A stretch of DNA of 44,926 bases from a virus: the IMG/VR virus record IMGVR_UViG_3300045119_000122, positions 1 through 44,926 of that record. The stretch is one strand, 5' to 3'. The translations under genes and the position numbers were made by a program. Of this stretch, positions 1 through 44,926 are shown piece after piece. How positions within the stretch are numbered: the stretch's first letter is position 1; the number at the start of each line of letters is the position of its first letter. The notes beneath the pieces were generated by a model. That model was not told the DNA's origin and did no database searches. It saw only the letters and a program-made list of their open reading frames with translations.

Positions 1-422
1 AGTGCTTGGGTGTCTTGTTCCATCCCTAGTCGCCAATCACCAAATACTGCCTTAATGTTTGGCTCATCTAGCATTGCTGCTACGTCACGAAGAATGTTAA
101 TCGCATGCTTCTCAGTAGCAGACAGTACTAGAATGAACTTGCGATTAGTAAACAGAATACAAAATAAAATCCACATTTTTACCAAAGTTGTTTTACCAAA
201 ACCGCGTGGCAAACCTAATGCCATGTTAGGGAAATAACGTCTTGGCTTTTCTTCCTGAATTAGCCAAGCCCACACAGCTACAAAGATTCTAGACCAATCA
301 AACTCAAATGCATCTGGCATAGCTAGTGCACTTAGAAAGTTTAAGTCTGCTTTGGCGGCTTCAGCAATCTCATGAATATCTGCTGCAGTAGTAACTAAGT
401 CTTGGTTAATGTTGTCTGACAT
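1..422 (-). CDS. terL: Terminase large subunit, N-terminal 140 codons (the gene wraps the circular junction and continues 44799->43722)
   Basis: Reverse-strand ATG at 422-420 gives MSDNINQDLV... with a Walker A-like GLPRGFGKTT. The frame is continuous with ORF 43722..44873 through the 127-bp end overlap (422+1078=1500 nt). Confidence 0.85.
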   Translation of the reverse strand, partial: MSDNINQDLVTTAADIHEIAEAAKADLNFLSALAMPDAFEFDWSRIFVAVWAWLIQEEKPRRYFPNMALGLPRGFGKTTLVKMWILFCILFTNRKFILVLSATEKHAINILRDVAAMLDEPNIKAVFGDWRLGMEQDTQA

Positions 423-437
423 TTATTTATTCCTTAT

Positions 438-627
438 TGGCGCTACAGTCCTTACCAGCGGAGACCGCTAGGGGAGCTTACCCGACTGCCTTCCCCAAGA
501 TCAAGAAGTTCTCTCAGCCACTCGCGCTTCGCGCTCGCTAGGCTTCGACAACATTCTTGACTTGTGGGCCCTGGCTAGTCGGACGCTCCGCCCTATCGGT
601 CACCTAGGTAGCGGCCTGGGCGCGCCA
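438..627. repeat. GC-rich imperfect-palindrome element, copy A (between the TerS-like gene and terL)
   Basis: Closing stem TGGCGC(438-443)/GCGCCA(622-627). Blocks shared with the other copies are AAGATCAA(497-504), GCGC-TTC-GCGC apex(524-534), CGCTAGGC(536-543), TTGACTT(557-563) and GGGCGCGCC(618-626). Confidence 0.8.
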
Positions 628-4519: not shown

Positions 4520-4546
4520 AGCCTGGACTAACAATCCGGGCTTTTT
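4520..4546 (+). terminator. Rho-independent terminator
   Basis: AGCCTGGA/TCCGGGCT stem (one mismatch), then TTTTT. Confidence 0.6.
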
Positions 4547-4991: not shown

Positions 4992-5429
4992 ATGTCTAGC
5001 TTGTCTACTAAGGTACGTCCTACTTTCACACTTGCAGAAATGCGCTTACTAGCACAAGGTATGGAGTTGCTACTTAATCGACATATTCAGGCTGGTGATT
5101 TTAATAATCCAATCTTGCTAGATATGATTAGAATTAAAGACTATTGCGGTGGATTTGTTCCAGCAGTGTCTAAAGCAAATGAGCAATCTAAGTTAGCTGC
5201 TTACATTCAGATGCAGGGTATTGAAACTTCTATTCCGCAAGGTACTGCTATTATCCAGCCTTTGGAAACTGGCAGTATCGAACTAACAGACGATCAAAGA
5301 TATGATCTTTTAAAACTGCGGGATGAATCTACATACAGTGACGAAGATAAAGTATTCATGCTTAATGTAGGCACTCTTATTATGATGCGTCGTGCTGGCA
5401 TTAATACAGTTACTGAGTCAGACCTGTAA
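4992..5429 (+). CDS. Hypothetical protein, 145 aa. Ends ...TVTESDL
   Basis: Track ORF. Bracketed by two large structured non-coding elements. Confidence 0.7.
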   Translation: MSSLSTKVRPTFTLAEMRLLAQGMELLLNRHIQAGDFNNPILLDMIRIKDYCGGFVPAVSKANEQSKLAAYIQMQGIETSIPQGTAIIQPLETGSIELTDDQRYDLLKLRDESTYSDEDKVFMLNVGTLIMMRRAGINTVTESDL

Positions 5430-5479
5430 TGCAATTGAGAATCATTCTCATCCTCATTACCCTGTCACACATTATTCCA

Positions 5480-5680
5480 GGCTCGCCCATCCTTTCCCGC
5501 GTACCCGCTAAGCTAGCTTATCCCAACCGATTCCAAGTCAAGCACCCACACAACAAATTCAGCGCGCCGGGCTTCGCCCTATGCTATAATTTGTAGGTGC
5601 TAGGGCGGGCTTGACTTTGAACCTTGCCGGTTGGGGCGCTACGCCTTAACGGTCACGGGGTTGCGGATAGCCGAGCCGCC
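5480..5680. repeat. GC-rich palindromic element, variant copy D
   Basis: Shared blocks are GCTAGCTTA(5512-5520), AAGTCAAGC(5535-5543)/GCTTGACTT(5609-5617), apex GGGC-TTC-GCCC(5569-5579), GCTAGGGC(5599-5606) and GGGGCGCTAC(5633-5642). Outer stem CCAACCG/CCGGTTGG. Confidence 0.65.
5582..5590 (+). promoter_or_regulatory. Extended -10 element TGCTATAAT inside the apex of element D
   Basis: Exact TGnTATAAT match. No good -35. It lies 135 nt upstream of gene 5725. Confidence 0.4.
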
Positions 5681-5724
5681 CCGCTACTAGCACACACGCT
5701 AACTAACAGAGTGAGATACTAGAA

Positions 5725-6021
5725 ATGGCAATATCACAGCATCAAGTACCTAAGAAATTAACTACCGGAATGGCAGTAGTTGCTTATTTGCCACCGACAC
5801 ATAGAATTGCAGGAATAGAAGCTAGAAATGGTGTAAGAGTAGGCAAATGGTTCAAAGCAAGTATTTATCAAATTGACTTAGATATGTACACAATTCAAGT
5901 TGGTAATATCCTTGTTGCATTACCAAAGAATCTTGTAATTCTGGTGCGCTCCACCAGTTGGAATGACAGTGATGCAAAGGTGCGAGCAGATAAACGTAAC
6001 GCAGTAAGAAATAGAAAGTAA
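5725..6021 (+). CDS. Hypothetical protein, 98 aa
   Basis: Track ORF. Confidence 0.6.
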   Translation: MAISQHQVPKKLTTGMAVVAYLPPTHRIAGIEARNGVRVGKWFKASIYQIDLDMYTIQVGNILVALPKNLVILVRSTSWNDSDAKVRADKRNAVRNRK

Positions 6022-6073
6022 CTGGCTAACTAACTTACTAAACCTTGAAAGTGTTGAAAGTGGAGAAACATAA

Positions 6074-7078
6074 ATGAAAGTGACTTGCCCAATTAGTGGC
6101 GTAACTTACATACTTATTGCGCCAGTGCGCGGACACGCGACTCACCCGCACCCGATGCTAAGTTCCAGCATTAAACTTAGTCAGCTTCACGACTGGTATC
6201 TAGCAGACTGGATTAAAGGGGACTTACCAGAACTGGAGACTCACTTGCTTGGCTGTGCTTACCTGCTTAAGTTACCAGTAGAATCTGTATGTATTACTAA
6301 CTTCGGCATGCCAGCTGCTAACTATGATCGATTCTGGTCTAGTAACATGGAGCGGCTGGCAAAACTAGCAACACGTTTGGAAGGTAAAATAGTTAAAGCC
6401 CGTAACTTGCCACGCATGGTAGTTAATGCTGAAACAATCTCTAATTTGCCTGACTGGCTTGGCACACTGGAATCTCAGATTGCTTGGGATTCAATGCCAG
6501 TTAGTGACAAGGCTAAAGAATTGAATCGCGAATCTTACAAAGTCTCCACTGAGGTATCTGGCCGCACCATTAGCCAATATCTAGATACCAGCGAGATTGA
6601 TGGAATAGTGTTGCGGGCATTGCGAGCTAGCCCACTAGCTAAATCTGAGCAGAAAGCATTGCCAGTAATTCTGGCGGATTGGGCGGGCAAAGTTACAGAC
6701 TTTCCAGCACATAGCCGCACTCGTTGGCACCGTGTGATTCAGACCATATTCCAAGATAACTATATTGACCAGATTCTAATGTCGGATATGACAGTGAAGC
6801 AGGTTAAAGCTATTGAGGAACATATGAAACTGAATACTCCACTGGATGCAGTGGGCACCAGTCACAGCAGCCTGTTAATGCAGCGACTGAGCGTAGTAAT
6901 TCCAGTGTTGGAAGACTTCAGTCCAGCAATCAGCAGTCGCAAGAAAGTAGATGATGCGGCGTTAAACTCGGCTCTTATGGGCGAGAGCAGCAAACCAGCA
7001 CAATCTACTGGCCCTAAAATGACACTGGCTGAGCGACTGGCTGCACGGCTGGCAGGTGTGGGGAGTAAGCAGCAATGA
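6074..7078 (+). CDS. Hypothetical protein, 334 aa
   Basis: Track ORF. GGAGA SD. No motif recognised. Confidence 0.75.
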   Translation: MKVTCPISGVTYILIAPVRGHATHPHPMLSSSIKLSQLHDWYLADWIKGDLPELETHLLGCAYLLKLPVESVCITNFGMPAANYDRFWSSNMERLAKLATRLEGKIVKARNLPRMVVNAETISNLPDWLGTLESQIAWDSMPVSDKAKELNRESYKVSTEVSGRTISQYLDTSEIDGIVLRALRASPLAKSEQKALPVILADWAGKVTDFPAHSRTRWHRVIQTIFQDNYIDQILMSDMTVKQVKAIEEHMKLNTPLDAVGTSHSSLLMQRLSVVIPVLEDFSPAISSRKKVDDAALNSALMGESSKPAQSTGPKMTLAERLAARLAGVGSKQQ

Positions 7079-20434: not shown

Positions 20435-20968
20435 ATGGCTAGTACCTTGATTGTGTTAGATTATATGTTTCACGGTGTTCGTTGTTCAGAAAAAGAATAT
20501 AATTATTTACTAGAAGCTTACAAGGGAGTAACAAATCCTTTTGTAAATGAAATTGAAAACTCTCTACAGTGGTTCCGAGATGGCTGTCCGGGTCCCAAAG
20601 TAAGTAAACAATTGCTTGAATCAGCTGCACGACATGAAGTTAGTAAACTCGTGGAACCACAAGTAGCTAGCAGTGTGGAAGCAACTCTAGCTCAACGCGG
20701 TTCCCGTTACGGTGATTTCACGGATCATGCTAGATTGTGCCAAGCGTTGCAGCAAGAGTTGCAAGAATTCAAACCTATTAGCGAGCCTGCTGGTGCAGTA
20801 ACTAAATGGGAGAAGCTATCTCCTGTTCAGCGCCAAGCACTTACAGTTATTATGGATAAAGTAGCACGTATCCTTACTGGTGATCCTAACTACGATGACA
20901 ACTGGCATGACATTCAAGGTTATGCTAAGCTTGTTGAAGATCGTTTGCCTAAGAAGGAATCGCACTAA
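20435..20968 (+). CDS. Hypothetical protein whose C-terminal half is DUF6378-like
   Basis: Pattern RGSRYGDF...IMDKVARILTGDPNYDDNWHDIQGYAKL, recalled from phage DUF6378 proteins. Not searched. Confidence 0.4.
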   Translation: MASTLIVLDYMFHGVRCSEKEYNYLLEAYKGVTNPFVNEIENSLQWFRDGCPGPKVSKQLLESAARHEVSKLVEPQVASSVEATLAQRGSRYGDFTDHARLCQALQQELQEFKPISEPAGAVTKWEKLSPVQRQALTVIMDKVARILTGDPNYDDNWHDIQGYAKLVEDRLPKKESH

Positions 20969-21543
20969 TGGCAACTCCATCTCGCAAATACAAACCTAAA
21001 GCTCACGGTGTACTAGACATTGAAACACTGTCCACTGACAAGCGTGCCGCAATTGTCCACATGGCGATAGTAATTGCCTATGGTGGTGGCGGACATAATC
21101 AATGGGAAGCATTCATTAAACCTAGTGAGTACGTAGGTTCCCAGTTTGAAATTGACCAAGACACTTGGAACTGGCACGAGAAAGAGCATCCCGGATATCT
21201 TACAATGTGTGAGGAGCGGGGAGTAACTCTGGCTGAGGCGCTGCAAGGTCTGGTAGCTTTCATGGCTGACTACGCAACCGAGTTTGAACTTCACATGTGG
21301 TCGCAAGGTAAAGACTTTGATTTCCCAATTGTGGATTGGGCATTGAAGAATGCGGGACTTAATGCACCTTGGACTTATAGCCGAGTGCACTGTCTGCGTG
21401 ATTTGGTTTGGTTGAATCCAACTAGCCGAGTAAGTGGCACTCAGCAAGATAAGCACAACGCACTTAGCGATGCACAGTGGGAAGCAGGTCAGCTGCGAGC
21501 TGTGATTGCTAATTCAAATTGGTATCAGAGACTATTCTCATGA
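20968..21543 (+). CDS. DEDDh-type 3'-5' exonuclease
   Basis: VLDIETLS (DxE), KDFDFPIV and HNALSDAQ (Hx4D). TAATG coupling. Confidence 0.6.
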   Translation: MATPSRKYKPKAHGVLDIETLSTDKRAAIVHMAIVIAYGGGGHNQWEAFIKPSEYVGSQFEIDQDTWNWHEKEHPGYLTMCEERGVTLAEALQGLVAFMADYATEFELHMWSQGKDFDFPIVDWALKNAGLNAPWTYSRVHCLRDLVWLNPTSRVSGTQQDKHNALSDAQWEAGQLRAVIANSNWYQRLFS

Positions 21544-22400: not shown

Positions 22401-22449
22401 ACGTCTGCTGGAAATGTATGAAACTAACAGACAGTGTAACTAGAGCGTC

Positions 22450-22618
22450 GGCGCGCCCCCGCCGTAAGGGGATGCCGGCAAGGCGAAGCGTCACGAGGCT
22501 GTAGCACTAAGTCAATCACGCCTAGCGTAGGCCCGAAGGGCCGTAGCGGCTGATTGATCTTAGGGCAGCCGAGTGGTAAGCTAGCCAGGGCGGCAAGCCC
22601 CGTAGGTGGGTAGCGCCA
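22450..22618. repeat. GC-rich palindromic element, copy B (inverted relative to A, C and D) at the convergence of the two arms
   Basis: Reverse complements of the shared blocks: GGCGCGCC(22450-22457), AAGTCAAT(22509-22516), GCCTAGCG(22520-22527), apex GGCCC-GAA-GGGCC(22530-22542), TTGATCTT(22554-22561), GTAAGCTAGCC(22576-22586) and GCGCCA(22613-22618). Confidence 0.8.
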
Positions 22619-22628
22619 CAGAAACTAA

Positions 22629-25600
22629 CTAGAATCCATTAGCAGTCTCATTACTCAAGTCATCCCTACCACCTAACAACTCCTGCATGTATCTACTGTA
22701 CGGACTATTTAATCCATTGGCCAAAGCTTCTGCCCTACTCCTATCCGTATTTTTATACTGTTCCATAAACCAACTATTAAATCCAGTCTGCCTACCTCCC
22801 TTCTCCATATACTCCTGAGCAAACTTCCCAATCTGCTCAGAGTCTACACTACCACCTCCCTGTAAATTAAGTTTCAGCGCAGTGCCAAGCCGCTGCCTCT
22901 TCTCCCTATCTGCTGCCATATAACCTTGAACTCGGAAATAAGCATTAGATGTGATTGCCTCGTCAATTGGTTTAGCACCAGCAAGTCTAGTTAATGTGCC
23001 CCAACTTGCAAGATCATTAGTTCCCAAGATAGTTCCGTTAGCTTGAGTGCTTGTGACCTTACCATCCTCATTGGTAAATGCTCTAGCAGTCTGAGCCATA
23101 CCAGCCAATGGCCGGCTAAGTCCCATATGCTCTACACCATTAAGGAATGAGTTCCAAACTGGAGCACCGCCACTAATATCACTTAAGGTTTGTTTAGTAG
23201 ATCCAAACACTTTTGCGAAAGCGGAGATGAAAGGGATATCTCCAGGGTTAGTTGGGTTGGGAACAATACTCCAGGTTCTTGGGTTAGTGTCACCACGGGT
23301 AAACAAGGAAGCTCTAAGGACATTTGATGGGGCACCAAACATAAGCCAATCGGCACCTGCCTTACCGAAGATTGTATTGGTTGCACTGTAAAGATCCTTG
23401 TGTTCTGGATTGCCACTAGCGTTACCAACCAAGCTAGTATTAATCAAGTTGAATCCCGGCAAGCTAGATGCACCATACACACTGCCTTGCAAACCTGCTG
23501 CCATTGCTACTGCCTTACCATTACCTTCACCAATATAGCGGAACATCTGTTGCATCAAGTTAAATTGGTAAGATTGAAACAATCCCATTGCCTGACCAAT
23601 TGGACCTTGGAACATTAGTGGCCGCTCCGCTGCACGAATTACTCCGTTAACTCGATTCACAAAAGTATTCACATAAGCCCAGCCAACTTTCTCGTCAATT
23701 ACTCCAGCCTTAACTCCTACCTCAGTAATCTGTTTCATTACATCAGCAGTAATCAACCGGTTAAATTGTTCAGTCCAGCGGTTACCAGTAAACTTCTCAC
23801 CATACTTACCAAATGATTCCCAAGCCGCACTAAGCTGCTCAGACTTCTTAGACATATCATGGATACTTTCTTTACCAGTCAATGTCATAGCATCAAGTGA
23901 TTTGTAATACTGGTCACTGAGATCAGGCAACAATCCACGCAACTTGTATTCAGCTAGCAATGCTTCCCTTCCCTCACCGTGCAATCGTGCTAGACTATTT
24001 GCAATGAGCTTACTTGGAGATTTAATCAAGTCTCCTTCAACTCCTGGCACACCGATCTTCATGATCTGTGCTAGCTGACCTGCACCCTCAACACTTCCTT
24101 TCTCAATAGCGCCAGTAAGCGACTTCAACTCTGCACTAAACAAAACTGTATTACCCAGCAAGTTGTTCAATGCGTTAAATGGATCAAGCCGCAAAACTGT
24201 AGTAGTTAGAAATGCGTTAGACTTACGAATAAAACTAGTAAGCGTTCCGCGTGGCACACTGCTATTTGCCATAATGTTTGTAGCTGCATCATAGTAAGCA
24301 GTTTTAAATCCCAGTTCCTCAAAGACATTGTTAATCATCTCCGACTTCTCAGGAGTAAACTTACCTCCCTGACTAGTAAAGATGCTGGTAGCTTTGTCCC
24401 ATGCTTGGCTGACATACCGATCCAATGACTGATTAAGTGTATTCAGCAAAGGAACTTCGTCAATCTTAGTTATGTTAAGCATTGCCTTGACTTGCGCCAA
24501 GTACGGATTCTTATCGCTGGAAGTCACTACGTCGGTAACAGAATCCTTACCGGTTTTACTGCCAGCCACGTTAGTGAATTGATCACCCAGGCGTTTAAGT
24601 TCATTGGTTTCTTTTTCATACTTGGCAAGAACCATTTGCTTAATGAGTGTGTTCTCTTTAGCTGTATGATCTGCGAGCCAGCCGTTAACGATCTTACCGG
24701 GGTCGGTCTGCGGAAAGAATCTGGAACTAATTCCCCGTGAAACCAGATCATGGTCAATGTAGTTATCATGAAGTGTCTTGTCATAAATGTATTCCCCACG
24801 AGCATTGTAAAATTCTTCACTCTGCCCTTTAGTATATACTTTATATTCACTAGGAACTTTTGCAATCTGATCTTCCAACTCTTTACTGCTATTGGCAAAC
24901 AGCATTTTAGTGTGCCCAACACCAACAAGAGTTTCATCTTTAACAAAGGCTACATAACGATAGTCTCGTGGATTAGGACGAATTACCTGCCAAGTATCCA
25001 GAGCCTTATTATCTGTGTTACCTTGAACTGCATTAAGTTCTTTCCAACTCTGGTTGCGAGTACCATTCAATGCAATATGCAATTCCACTGCCTGCTTTAA
25101 CTCAGGAGAGTCTAGCAGAATTTCTTCTGGGGTTCCTTTAGCAAGCTCAACTGGTTTAACACTCTCACCTGCATCTAATGCTCGTTGATAGTCACGAATC
25201 TTTTGTGGAATCAGTGCATGTCCAGCGTCAGATAATACAAACTTCTCAGGTGTATTGGCAATGATTTCATTGATTGTACTGAACTTAACTGCAGCCTGTG
25301 GATTCTCAACCAACTTCAATGCAGCTGGATTAATCATGTCAGTGAGCTGGCTAATTTTAGTGCGGGTCAATTCACTGGTAAGGTTACCAATGTAACTGGT
25401 CATTGCTTCAAGTGAGCCATAGCTGCCACCAGCGTTAGTAAATACTCCTGCACCTGTGCCCGTACGATTGGCTGAGCGCAACAGATCCTCACTAATCTCT
25501 GGAAATGCTAGTCCAAGATCTCCAGCATAGTTTACAAATACTTTATTCGTAGCCTCGTTAGCAACCTTCTCACGATACTTAATAAGCGCCATACCATTAA

Positions 25601-38108: not shown

Positions 38109-38121
38109 ACTAACTCTCCAT

Positions 38122-38293
38122 TGGCGCTTCCAGTCTTAGGAGCTAACCCGCTCCGGCTAGCTTACTTCGGCCCCGGACCAAAGATCAATCGGCCACTCCC
38201 TCGCTTCGCTCGGTCGCTAGGCCGATTGACTTCGGATCCTCGGGGCCTCGCAGCTTAGCCTTGCGGTCAGCTCCCTAGCGACTGGGGCGCGCC
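38122..38293. repeat. GC-rich palindromic element, copy C (head/tail module boundary)
   Basis: TGGCGC(38122-38127), GGCTAGCTTAC(38155-38165), AAGATCAA(38181-38188), GCTTCGC(38203-38209), CGCTAGGC(38215-38222), ATTGACTT(38225-38232) and GGGCGCGCC(38285-38293). Confidence 0.8.
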
Positions 38294-38311
38294 TAGCTGC
38301 TAATAACCGAA

Positions 38312-38836
38312 TTAGTTAGTGCCGCCAGCTTTCAGCTTATCGAGGGTAATTTGCTGCGGAGTGCGAGTATCTACAACATCCGCTGGATTGTGCAGATTGG
38401 TAGTAAGGGATGTGGTAGTGGAAGAGCCTTCCACAACTTCCTTGGTCTGGGATTCAGCAAGCTTACGCTGATCTTCAGTAAGTTCAGTTTGCCCAGCTAC
38501 ACTGGCGCTAGAGGAGATTGCTTGCTGGGTAAGAGTTTGGTGAGATACACCAGCATCTACCAATTTGCCGCCAGACTTAAGTTCCTGCATAATTTCCTCG
38601 CGCAGACGTTTCTTAAGTTGATCCATCGGAGTTGCGCATTCCGGATCAATTTGTGGCTCGCCGATATCTACGTAGATACCAAATTCTTGATTGTTGTCAG
38701 CAGCTTCTTGCAGCTCGGCTTGCAGCTTGGTATTGGTAGTAAAGAATCGGCCAAGAATAAATGCAACAGTGTTGCCAGATTTCAGGGCTACATTTACGTT
38801 ACCATTGGAGTTTTTGAACAGAGTTACAGTAGTCAT
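38312..38836 (-). CDS. Hypothetical head-associated protein, 174 aa (decoration candidate)
   Basis: Follows the capsid gene after a terminator. Biased codon use. Confidence 0.6.
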   Translation of the reverse strand: MTTVTLFKNSNGNVNVALKSGNTVAFILGRFFTTNTKLQAELQEAADNNQEFGIYVDIGEPQIDPECATPMDQLKKRLREEIMQELKSGGKLVDAGVSHQTLTQQAISSSASVAGQTELTEDQRKLAESQTKEVVEGSSTTTSLTTNLHNPADVVDTRTPQQITLDKLKAGGTN

Positions 38837-38865: not shown

Positions 38866-38902
38866 TAAAAAATGCCCGAGCTGCTATTAACAACCCGGGC
38901 AT
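38866..38902 (-). terminator. Rho-independent (attenuating) terminator after the capsid gene
   Basis: On the minus strand, ATGCCCGGG...CTCGGGCAT stem then TTTTTT. Confidence 0.6.
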
Positions 38903-38922
38903 TGAGTTGACACTAAACAAGA

Positions 38923-43721: not shown

Positions 43722-44926
43722 TTAGAAGGGTGAGTTTGCAGTTTCGGAGTATTCAGTTTCTTCGTTCTCGAATTCCTGCCTACCTTCAATGGTATTGATT
43801 CGCAAGAAATCTTTCATCTCTTCAATTACTCTTGGTGCGTAAGTAAGACAGTCAAGGATACCATCCACGTTTTTTGTCTTAAGTGGATTAAATGCACGGA
43901 TCTGGCTGTGTACTTGAGCTGTACAGCGTGGGTGAATGTGTAACTCACCAGCCATATAAGACTTAAACATGGTTAGAATTCGGGAGTTCTTGGACAACTT
44001 ACCAGAATAAATAGGCAAGAAGTTAATACCAATGATTCCCAAATCTTCACAACGTTTCTCGGACCAGTATTTCAAACTGTACTGATATCCGTTACCTTCA
44101 ATTACTACAAGAGAGCAATTATGTTTCATTGCCATCTTGATACTTAAATCAATTGCATCACCAGGAGAGTATCGACCTTCATCAATTTCCATTGCTACGG
44201 GTTGGCCATCAAACACTTCAAAGTAAGTAGTGGTAATTGCATCACTGTTTACTAGATCGTTTGCAGGGTCAATTACAATAAAGTTGCCTTGGTGAATATC
44301 ACCTTCTTCCAGTGGATACTCAGGCAGCTTGTCAAAGTCTACCAAGTTGTTAAGACTGGCATCCTCGTCATTAAGTACTTCAGCTGCAAAGATGTGAGCC
44401 TTGCCACTAGCAGCATCTCGCAAGTACTCAAGTTTCAACTGCTCAATTGGCTGCAACTCTTCCCATAAGCTAGTACCATCAGCAAGAATCCCACCACAAA
44501 TAAACTTGGCCCAGAATTCGTTAGCTTTAAGTTTCTTAAGAATACTGTGCGGAGTTGGATACATGTTAGCAATAAACAAAGTCATGCAGCCTTTTGGCGA
44601 CTTAGCTTTCATTGCTGTACCAGTCATCCAGTCAAACAAGTCATTACTAACTGTCTCACTGTCAGCATCTTCCCTGGTTTGCACGTCCTCAAAAATCATT
44701 ACATCCGGTCGGGCATTATCTACGTTAAGTCCTCGAACCGAGCCACCAGCACCAATTCCTGCTAAAATTACTGTTCTACCACGAAACCCAAACACTTTTA
44801 GTGCTTGGGTGTCTTGTTCCATCCCTAGTCGCCAATCACCAAATACTGCCTTAATGTTTGGCTCATCTAGCATTGCTGCTACGTCACGAAGAATGTTAAT
44901 CGCATGCTTCTCAGTAGCAGACAGTA
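43722..44926 (-). CDS. terL: Terminase large subunit, C-terminal part (runs off the window end; 44800-44926 duplicates 1-127)
   Basis: Nuclease/ATPase-domain-sized ORF in frame with 1..422 across the circular junction. Confidence 0.85.
   Translation of the reverse strand, partial: LSATEKHAINILRDVAAMLDEPNIKAVFGDWRLGMEQDTQALKVFGFRGRTVILAGIGAGGSVRGLNVDNARPDVMIFEDVQTREDADSETVSNDLFDWMTGTAMKAKSPKGCMTLFIANMYPTPHSILKKLKANEFWAKFICGGILADGTSLWEELQPIEQLKLEYLRDAASGKAHIFAAEVLNDEDASLNNLVDFDKLPEYPLEEGDIHQGNFIVIDPANDLVNSDAITTTYFEVFDGQPVAMEIDEGRYSPGDAIDLSIKMAMKHNCSLVVIEGNGYQYSLKYWSEKRCEDLGIIGINFLPIYSGKLSKNSRILTMFKSYMAGELHIHPRCTAQVHSQIRAFNPLKTKNVDGILDCLTYAPRVIEEMKDFLRINTIEGRQEFENEETEYSETANSPF
44800..44926. repeat. 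Exact 127-bp duplicate of bases 1-127 (end overlap of a circular contig)
   Basis: Base-for-base identity, read directly. Confidence 0.95.

Follow-up and report, generated by a model that had tools for sequence, protein, structure and literature searches.

Four hairpin elements in a podophage-like genome

The DNA studied here is a viral sequence of 44,926 nucleotides (nt; IMG/VR record IMGVR_UViG_3300045119_000122, positions 1–44,926), which was analysed over its whole length and is called the window throughout. It is a podophage-like genome with two converging gene arms, and four long GC-rich hairpin elements, designated c1 to c4, lie between its genes (Table 1). These are members of a lineage-specific family of rod-shaped hairpins, which are most likely RNA.

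The copies were delimited with a covariance model, R1, seeded on c1, c3 and c4 together with two external copies, c2 being left out of the seed. An earlier sequence-only reading of the window had placed four copies of a shared element at these positions, and the R1 boundaries agree with it within 3 nt. The four regions align along their full length, and a profile search of the whole window returned exactly four copies and no convincing fifth. The ordered sequence blocks which that reading had ascribed to all four are common to c1, c3 and c4, while c2 is a diverged and longer variant, its apical arm being extended by an insertion and TTGACTT standing in place of TTGATCTT. The block pattern AAGATCAA..GCTAGG..TTGACTT accordingly occurs three times in the window and not at all in 100 shuffles.

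As had also been described, the elements contain no open reading frame (ORF) and are richer in GC (0.59–0.66) than their 500-nt flanks (0.40–0.44); the genome as a whole has 44% GC. Each copy folds as a single long irregular hairpin with −98 to −108 kcal/mol on its better strand, and comparison with shuffled sequences gives z-scores of −5.8 to −9.4.

Table 1. Coordinates of the four elements and of the larger features of the window (aa, amino acids; MFE, minimum free energy in kcal/mol)
Feature	Position (nt)	Strand	Length (nt)	R1 score (bits)	MFE, − strand	MFE, + strand	Description
c1	436–628	−	193	113	−102.8	−91.3	Rod hairpin
c1 core	497–563	−					Central helix, apical stem-loop, CCUAGCG block
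c2	5477–5679	−	203	63	−105.6	−85.1	Not in the R1 seed
c3	22448–22620	+	173	179	−84.5	−98.5	
c4	38120–38295	−	176	134	−108.1	−90.0	z = −9.4
Early/replication arm	about 1391–22343	+					Dda-like helicase, DNA polymerase, dUTPase, PD-(D/E)XK nuclease, DEDDh exonuclease
Packaging/structural arm	1392, across the window junction, to 22629	−					From the 240-aa TerS-like ORF (1392) to the end of the 1609-aa gene (22629)
TerL	422 (start), across the junction, to 43722	−					
Intrinsic terminator	38871–38903	−					15-bp stem followed by TTTTTT; directly 3′ of the major capsid gene

Copies in related phages

Homologs were sought by DNA-pattern scans of viral and metagenome contigs and at loci anchored on the capsid gene or on the 1609-aa gene, and everything retrieved was filtered by R1. 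The loose DNA pattern produced mostly chance matches, from which true copies were separated by the model alone; a scan of the relatives for GC-rich islands had a background too noisy to pick copies. At least 26 distinct copies were recovered on at least 19 contigs, all of them from relatives of the window phage. Sixteen of the 19 contigs are 64–88% identical to it at the nucleotide level in shared genes, and the other three have capsid proteins 67–98% identical. The copies are 150–207 nt long and number one to four per genome. IMGVR 3300022750_000021, for instance, carries copies at the c1, c2 and c3 junctions, and IMGVR 3300005288_000024 at those of c3 and c4.

With a 25-sequence nhmmer profile the gain was small: a weak match in contig L217 and, in L128, another copy in inverted orientation. 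L128, a relative with 63% GC, thus has two copies head to head less than 30 nt apart (5918–6042, +; 6070–6221, −), the second being weak (E = 8e-6).

Outside this clade the searches were negative. A scan of bacteria and archaea with one genome per species (185,579 species) yielded three pattern matches, none confirmed by the model; it demanded the conserved blocks, so that diverged host copies could escape it. R1 found no copy in Polaromonas phage Tiera or EBPR podovirus 3, the nearest cultured relatives as judged by the portal protein, and no match turned up when c1 and 25 kb of the window were compared by BLAST with about 50,000 deposited phage genomes.

Conserved structure

The consensus of 25 aligned copies is a rod of about 59 base pairs in 11–12 helices, interrupted by small internal loops. 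In this alignment, which was fitted to the model and is hence biased toward the structure, 86.8% of the pair cells are paired, compared with 66% after shuffling and 33–41% when the partners are slid by 1–3 columns. Compensatory changes occur at 50 of the 59 pairs, and the covariation score of 0.454 (0.144 for shuffled alignments) was matched in none of 500 shuffles. RNAalifold independently predicts the same rod, with compensatory changes at 35 of its 42 pairs.

The central helix, AAGUCAA/UUGAUCUU, looks nearly invariant, in part through ascertainment, because most of the external copies were retrieved with patterns that require this helix. Copies reached through protein anchors carry compensated versions of it (AAAUCA/UGAUUU in L158, UAGUCAA/UUGAUCUA in L161), and a compensated variant is also found in the L159 copy, which was retrieved without a sequence pattern. 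In c1 UUGAUCUU (497–504) pairs with AAGUCAA (557–563) with one U bulged; the apex is a GCGC-GAA-GCGC stem-loop (524–534), and the conserved CCUAGCG block lies at 536–543.

Several parts are conserved as sequence: UAAGCU(AGC) on the 3′ arm, opposite GC(G/U)AAGC; CCUAGCG near the apex; and the apical loop CGAAG. The small helix in which GC(G/U)AAGC faces GUAAGCUAGC shows no compensatory changes. Inspected by eye as a K-turn or a UAA/GAN motif, the GCGAAGC / GUAAGCUAGC loops did not seem to fit the consensus.

Two functional readings were considered and dropped. An internal sigma-70 promoter would consist of TTGATC and TAAGCT, 16–19 bp apart on the sense strand, but these match the consensus at only 7 of 12 positions, and at c3 the promoter would fire antisense into the late arm. 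A hairpin ribozyme was suggested by the A-GUC contained in AAGUCAA; the block is fully helical, and no Rfam ribozyme matched.

The conserved blocks also hold stop codons (UAA, UAG, UGA) in all frames and on both strands. Likewise, stop-rich stretches, with stops in more than one frame (CTAACTAA, TAGTTAG, TAACTAG), recur beside c1 to c4, for example at 5690–5712, 22419–22447, 22621–22636 and 38296–38320.

Strand and placement

One strand of the element, the same in all 25 copies, gives the more stable fold, by 2.5–26 kcal/mol. The paired columns contain 89 G-U or U-G cells against 36 A-C or C-A cells, and 80 A-G or G-A cells against three C-U cells. Relative to the flanking genes, the better strand is sense in 24 of the 26 recovered copies. 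These copies occupy about nine junctions: TerS-like/TerL, TerL/portal, the spacers behind three further genes (a small one past TerL, the portal gene, and the gene next after the capsid gene), the convergence, where the replication arm has its 3′ end, and a few unassigned junctions. Copies begin 0–41 nt past the preceding stop codon and end 9–25 nt ahead of the next start codon, with a Shine-Dalgarno sequence directly after the basal helix. So close a fit to the surrounding stop codons and Shine-Dalgarno sequences argues for a role at the level of the transcript.

Three of the window copies illustrate the pattern. c1 lies between the stop of the 240-aa ORF that the sequence-only reading called TerS-like (670) and the TerL start codon, and the TerL Shine-Dalgarno sequence AAGGA starts immediately past its basal helix; the same junction is occupied by orthologs in L004, L159 and probably L003. 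c3, the sole strong hairpin between the two arms, fills the gap where they converge and is sense to the replication (+) arm, at its 3′ end; the stop of the 1609-aa late gene on the other strand follows 8 nt past it. Orthologs of c3 in matching orientation are present in L134, L009/L240, L141, L147 and L241. c4, sense to the late arm, separates a gene of 174 aa (stop 38312), located downstream of the major capsid gene, from a 199-aa gene (start 38108), and has orthologs at its junction in L158, L160/L106, L161, L168, L127 and L151.

c2 differs. It lies between two early + strand genes (4992–5429 and 5725–6021), whose proteins are conserved in L159, and is antisense to both. The L159 copy (196–402) has the place and orientation of c2, and only these two genomes have a copy in the early region. 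The positions described by the sequence-only reading were largely right. On the + strand, the apical insertion of c2 contains a perfect extended −10 box, TGCTATAAT (5581–5589), a candidate promoter within the element; it points into the downstream early/replication genes, and its counterpart in L159 is only TGTGCTACACT.

The strand asymmetry bears directly on the suggestion of a protein-bound cruciform in double-stranded DNA. Such a structure would be an imperfect palindrome whose pairing is kept by compensatory changes, as is found here, but the G-U pairs and A-G mismatches of the good strand become A-C and C-U on the complement, which is the weaker strand in 25 of 25 copies, and extrusion would be costly given the many bulges and loops. 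Because both strands must fold in a cruciform and only one is optimised, this role is ruled out in practice, and we regard it as extremely improbable. One-strand optimisation together with sense orientation favours a single-stranded element, most likely RNA.

Evolution of the copies

Similarity among the copies mainly follows the junction: identity is 71–84% among those at the c4 junction and 68–99% among those at the c3 junction, and only 55–67% among the paralogs within the window. Both observations indicate that the copies are old and were passed on vertically, as opposed to recent transposition. The flanks of 25 copies showed no target-site duplication.

Between c3 and its L134 ortholog identity is 98.8%, with flanks at 85–88%. 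The basal 50 + 50 nt of c4 are 98–100% identical to those of the L158 ortholog, and the neighbouring genes 79–91%. These comparisons show the orthologs to be under purifying selection. By contrast with its base, the apical 76 nt of c4 (38170–38245) are only 66% identical to L158 (1948–2023), the capsid proteins of the two phages sharing 98% identity. This hints that the c4 apex may have been swapped by recombination between copies. The L158 apex resembles an apex of the c3 type.

When related genomes are compared at the same junctions, presence and absence differ: a junction may be filled by the element in some relatives and be empty or otherwise filled in others. Copies have thus been gained or lost over longer times. 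Such differences in occupancy, up to four copies per genome, a GC content about 20 points above that of the genome and inverted-repeat ends (GGCGC...GCGCC) are what a selfish palindromic insertion would show, akin to a miniature inverted-repeat transposable element (MITE), spread harmlessly among intergenic spacers and without function for the phage. This candidate of the sequence-only reading is weak, and we consider it quite unlikely. None of 25 insertions has a target-site duplication; recent copies are missing, the window paralogs being diverged and the grouping being by junction; orthologs have diverged less than the coding DNA beside them; orientation is strongly sense-biased; the bacterial and archaeal scan gave no model-confirmed copy; and there is no transposase among 30 window proteins scanned against PHROGs or Pfam, a set from which some small ORFs were left out. 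A host-derived or recently active MITE is unlikely in particular, because no bacterial copy, target-site duplication or near-identical paralogs were found.

Terminators at the same junctions

None of c1 to c4 is followed by a U-tract. A terminator scan found nothing at their base, its sole match inside any copy being a 5-bp stem in c3; U-rich runs follow three external copies only, those of L127, L043 and L007. Canonical terminators do occur in this clade, and in part at the very junctions that elements occupy elsewhere. The post-capsid terminator of the window has counterparts at the matching place in about half of the related contigs. At the c4 junction L162 (6865–6937) and L163 (11760–11832), whose capsids are 72–73% identical to that of the window, contain, in a spacer of 71 nt, an intrinsic terminator of canonical form (GGGGA...TCCCC, then TTTTT). 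In L246 a bidirectional terminator directly follows the stop of the homolog of the 1609-aa late gene, which in the window is the site of c3. L147 has an element just upstream of a bidirectional terminator, and this element therefore lies inside the + arm transcript.

No phage RNA polymerase was seen in the window genome. Together with the textbook terminator 3′ of the capsid gene, this makes transcription by the host polymerase likely, and the terminator suggests attenuation after the capsid gene in such a transcript. For LUZ24, transcription by the host polymerase has been shown experimentally (PMC10914365).

Since the window copies lack a U-tract and a proper terminator is present elsewhere in the same genome, the rods are not ordinary terminators. 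The sequence-only reading had argued for a specific fold instead of a generic terminator, and this is borne out by the many compensated pairs, the conservation of some loops and the missing U-tract.

The elements might still control elongation directly, either as U-tract-independent or factor-dependent terminators or attenuators, or as polymerase-modifying RNAs like HK022 put. They occupy the sites of terminators in relatives, U-rich runs follow the three copies named above, and c1 precedes the post-capsid terminator, close to where the late operon begins. We nevertheless find direct control rather improbable: in addition to the lack of a U-tract in the window, the clade uses canonical terminators, and therefore its host polymerase needs them; the L147 element adjoins such a terminator and would be redundant as a terminator itself; and an antitermination role cannot account for c3, at the very end of its arm.

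Proposed function

Of the three roles put forward by the sequence-only reading (RNA processing or termination sites, cruciforms, MITE-like insertions), one in RNA processing or at transcript ends fits best, given the sense orientation, the exact way in which copies fill the space from stop codon to Shine-Dalgarno sequence, and the terminators at the same junctions in relatives. We tentatively propose that the elements are transcript-boundary elements serving RNA processing or 3′-end protection, a proposal that we rate as possible and somewhat short of probable. According to this model, the rods would be transcribed within polycistronic mRNAs, in the spacer between stop codon and Shine-Dalgarno sequence or in the 3′ untranslated end of an arm. 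The very stable hairpin would define mRNA 3′ ends and protect them from 3′-to-5′ exonucleases, such ends arising after read-through or Rho-dependent termination. It would probably also be cut by a double-strand-specific endonuclease, for example the host RNase III, and long early and late transcripts would in this way be split into segments that differ in stability and expression. RNase III cleavage or exonuclease blocking as the actual mechanism is suggested by analogy.

If so, the elements suggest how host-polymerase-dependent environmental podophages may divide long operons into differently expressed modules. T7 divides its operons by RNase III sites, and the present element is far larger and more elaborate.

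Several observations weigh against a transcript boundary. c2 and its counterpart in L159 run antisense to the conserved genes on either side, in contrast to the remaining 24 copies; on the transcript of the genes flanking c2 the weaker complement would form, so that the RNA model leaves c2 unexplained. Most relatives do without the element, which in samples drawn without bias is carried by 2 of 18 convergence-anchored loci and by 9 of 80 capsid-anchored loci, these being mostly the closest relatives and three of the nine being near-identical contigs. The loop sequences UAAGCU and CCUAGCG and the conserved basal half exceed the needs of a simple exonuclease barrier and hint at a specific partner. 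Finally, the strand asymmetry persists with DNA folding parameters (−50 versus −39.7 kcal/mol for c3).

This last point is consistent with a hairpin of single-stranded DNA that would form on the lagging-strand template while the genome is replicated and might serve as a signal for priming or protein loading. An origin between 5.7 and 22.4 kb would put all four better strands on the lagging-strand template, by our inference, and would also cover c2. The arrangement rests on an assumed replication origin and direction, while the GC skew along the window simply follows gene orientation. Moreover, the many G-U pairs (89 cells) suit RNA better, and the fit to stop codons and Shine-Dalgarno sequences as well as the terminators at the same junctions point to transcripts. 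We know of no comparable multi-copy signal of 170 nt in single-stranded DNA among the podophages with double-stranded DNA, and consider such a signal distinctly improbable; the elements most likely act as RNA.

The specific partner hinted at above is central to another account, in which the element is a stand-alone structured RNA that is released from the mRNAs, binds a particular protein and acts in trans or in cis. It might be a decoy for a factor binding double-stranded RNA or a regulator of neighbouring genes, effects on transcript boundaries being secondary. Sequence is kept in or near internal loops, as in GC(G/U)AAGC opposite GUAAGCUAGC; the basal half of c4 is 98–100% conserved while the apex is swapped; and several copies per genome lie inside highly expressed late operons. 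The 30 scanned proteins, on the other hand, include no candidate partner, no known RNA family is similar, and the invariance of the blocks is partly an artefact of retrieval patterns that required them. We judge this account unlikely, if worth keeping in view.

A bolder version holds that the rods are excised as abundant, discrete RNAs of about 170 nt resembling double-stranded RNA, with a dedicated protein partner; we think this improbable as well. Their role might be to act as decoys or titrators of a host nuclease specific for double-stranded RNA or of a defence sensor, or as a timing switch bound by a phage protein, in which case the sense copies would base-pair, through their conserved blocks, with the antisense early c2. 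Were it true, the excised rods would represent a class of non-coding RNA new to phages, as opposed to passive mRNA boundaries.

The conserved loops, the conserved basal half and the antisense copy are concrete experimental leads. If a specific partner exists, the element could serve as a modular part for RNA stability or processing in synthetic operons.

Relation to known elements

The sequence-only reading knew of no described match. Rfam 15 indeed returned nothing at gathering thresholds for the whole window, and permissive scans of c1 and c4 reached at best 10–14 bits, the thresholds being 41–80 bits. The literature on phage MITEs, intercistronic RNase III sites and structured phage RNAs contained nothing matching, apart from one IMG/VR catalogue of candidate RNAs that may include the element (see below).

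The closest counterparts in action are, by analogy, the T7-type hairpins and the REP, ERIC and Correia palindromes, and the element belongs to neither group. A T7-type RNase III site is a hairpin of about 50–60 nt with one central internal loop that contains the cleavage site, and a hairpin of the T7 group, once cleaved, stabilises the upstream message. Like the T7-group hairpins (R0.3, R1.1), the elements are irregular sense-strand hairpins between cistrons, in several copies with shared blocks and loops. They are about three times longer (150–207 nt), however, with 11–12 helices and no sequence similarity. Furthermore, cleavage is known for the T7 group and putative here, the present phage appears to use the host RNA polymerase, and one of its copies is antisense.

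REP/BIME, REPIN, ERIC and Correia elements (CREE/NEMIS) are GC-rich imperfect palindromes of about 35–150 nt which are intergenic, co-transcribed and variable between strains. Some REP sequences protect upstream mRNA from exonucleases, and some Correia elements are RNase III substrates. They occur in tens to hundreds of fairly similar chromosomal copies, associated with the mobilising enzyme RAYT in the case of REP and with a TA target duplication in that of Correia. The elements described here differ from REP, ERIC and Correia sequences in being confined to phages, at 1–4 per genome, deeply diverged and without duplication. With MITEs they share the differences in presence and absence at given sites, but neither target-site duplications nor families of recent similar copies.

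Intrinsic terminators share with the elements their location past the capsid module and where the arms converge; the stem of the elements is about ten times longer, with conserved loops, and the window copies have no U-tract. 6S RNA is a rod of about 180 nt whose large central bubble mimics an open promoter, whereas the elements have small internal loops and no central bubble, and the Rfam 6S models did not match them.

We conclude that the element is a well-supported new structured-RNA motif, absent from Rfam and confined to a clade of uncultured podophages, for which the function proposed above is inferred. It may be among the 10,006 unnamed and uncharacterised intergenic candidate RNAs that were derived from IMG/VR by covariation (Fremin, Bhatt and Kyrpides 2023; PMC10690425). 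That catalogue contains 14 motifs lying consistently upstream of the large terminase gene.

Other features of the genome

The first and last 127 nt of the window (1–127 and 44800–44926) are identical. This exact overlap of the ends indicates a closed circular assembly of 44,799 bp, the number of unique bases. Capsid and portal belong to the SU10 type, and the portal shares only about 32% identity with the portals of the Pseudomonas Bruynogheviruses, EBPR podovirus 3 and Polaromonas phage Tiera (about 31–33% for the last two). Matches among the 30 scanned proteins were to replication, nuclease and structural families only; PHROG and Pfam searches with the 240-aa ORF called TerS-like gave no match. 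A tRNA/tmRNA search of the window found none.

About 900 nt upstream of c3, a 191-aa protein (20968–21543, +) carries an Rv2179c-like 3′-5′ exoribonuclease domain (PF16473, E = 3e-21). It was considered as a partner of the element and set aside as non-discriminating, since it is found beside every convergence copy yet also in at least one element-less relative. A second canonical terminator-like hairpin with a T-run is present among the early genes at 4520–4542 (+), about 950 nt before c2.

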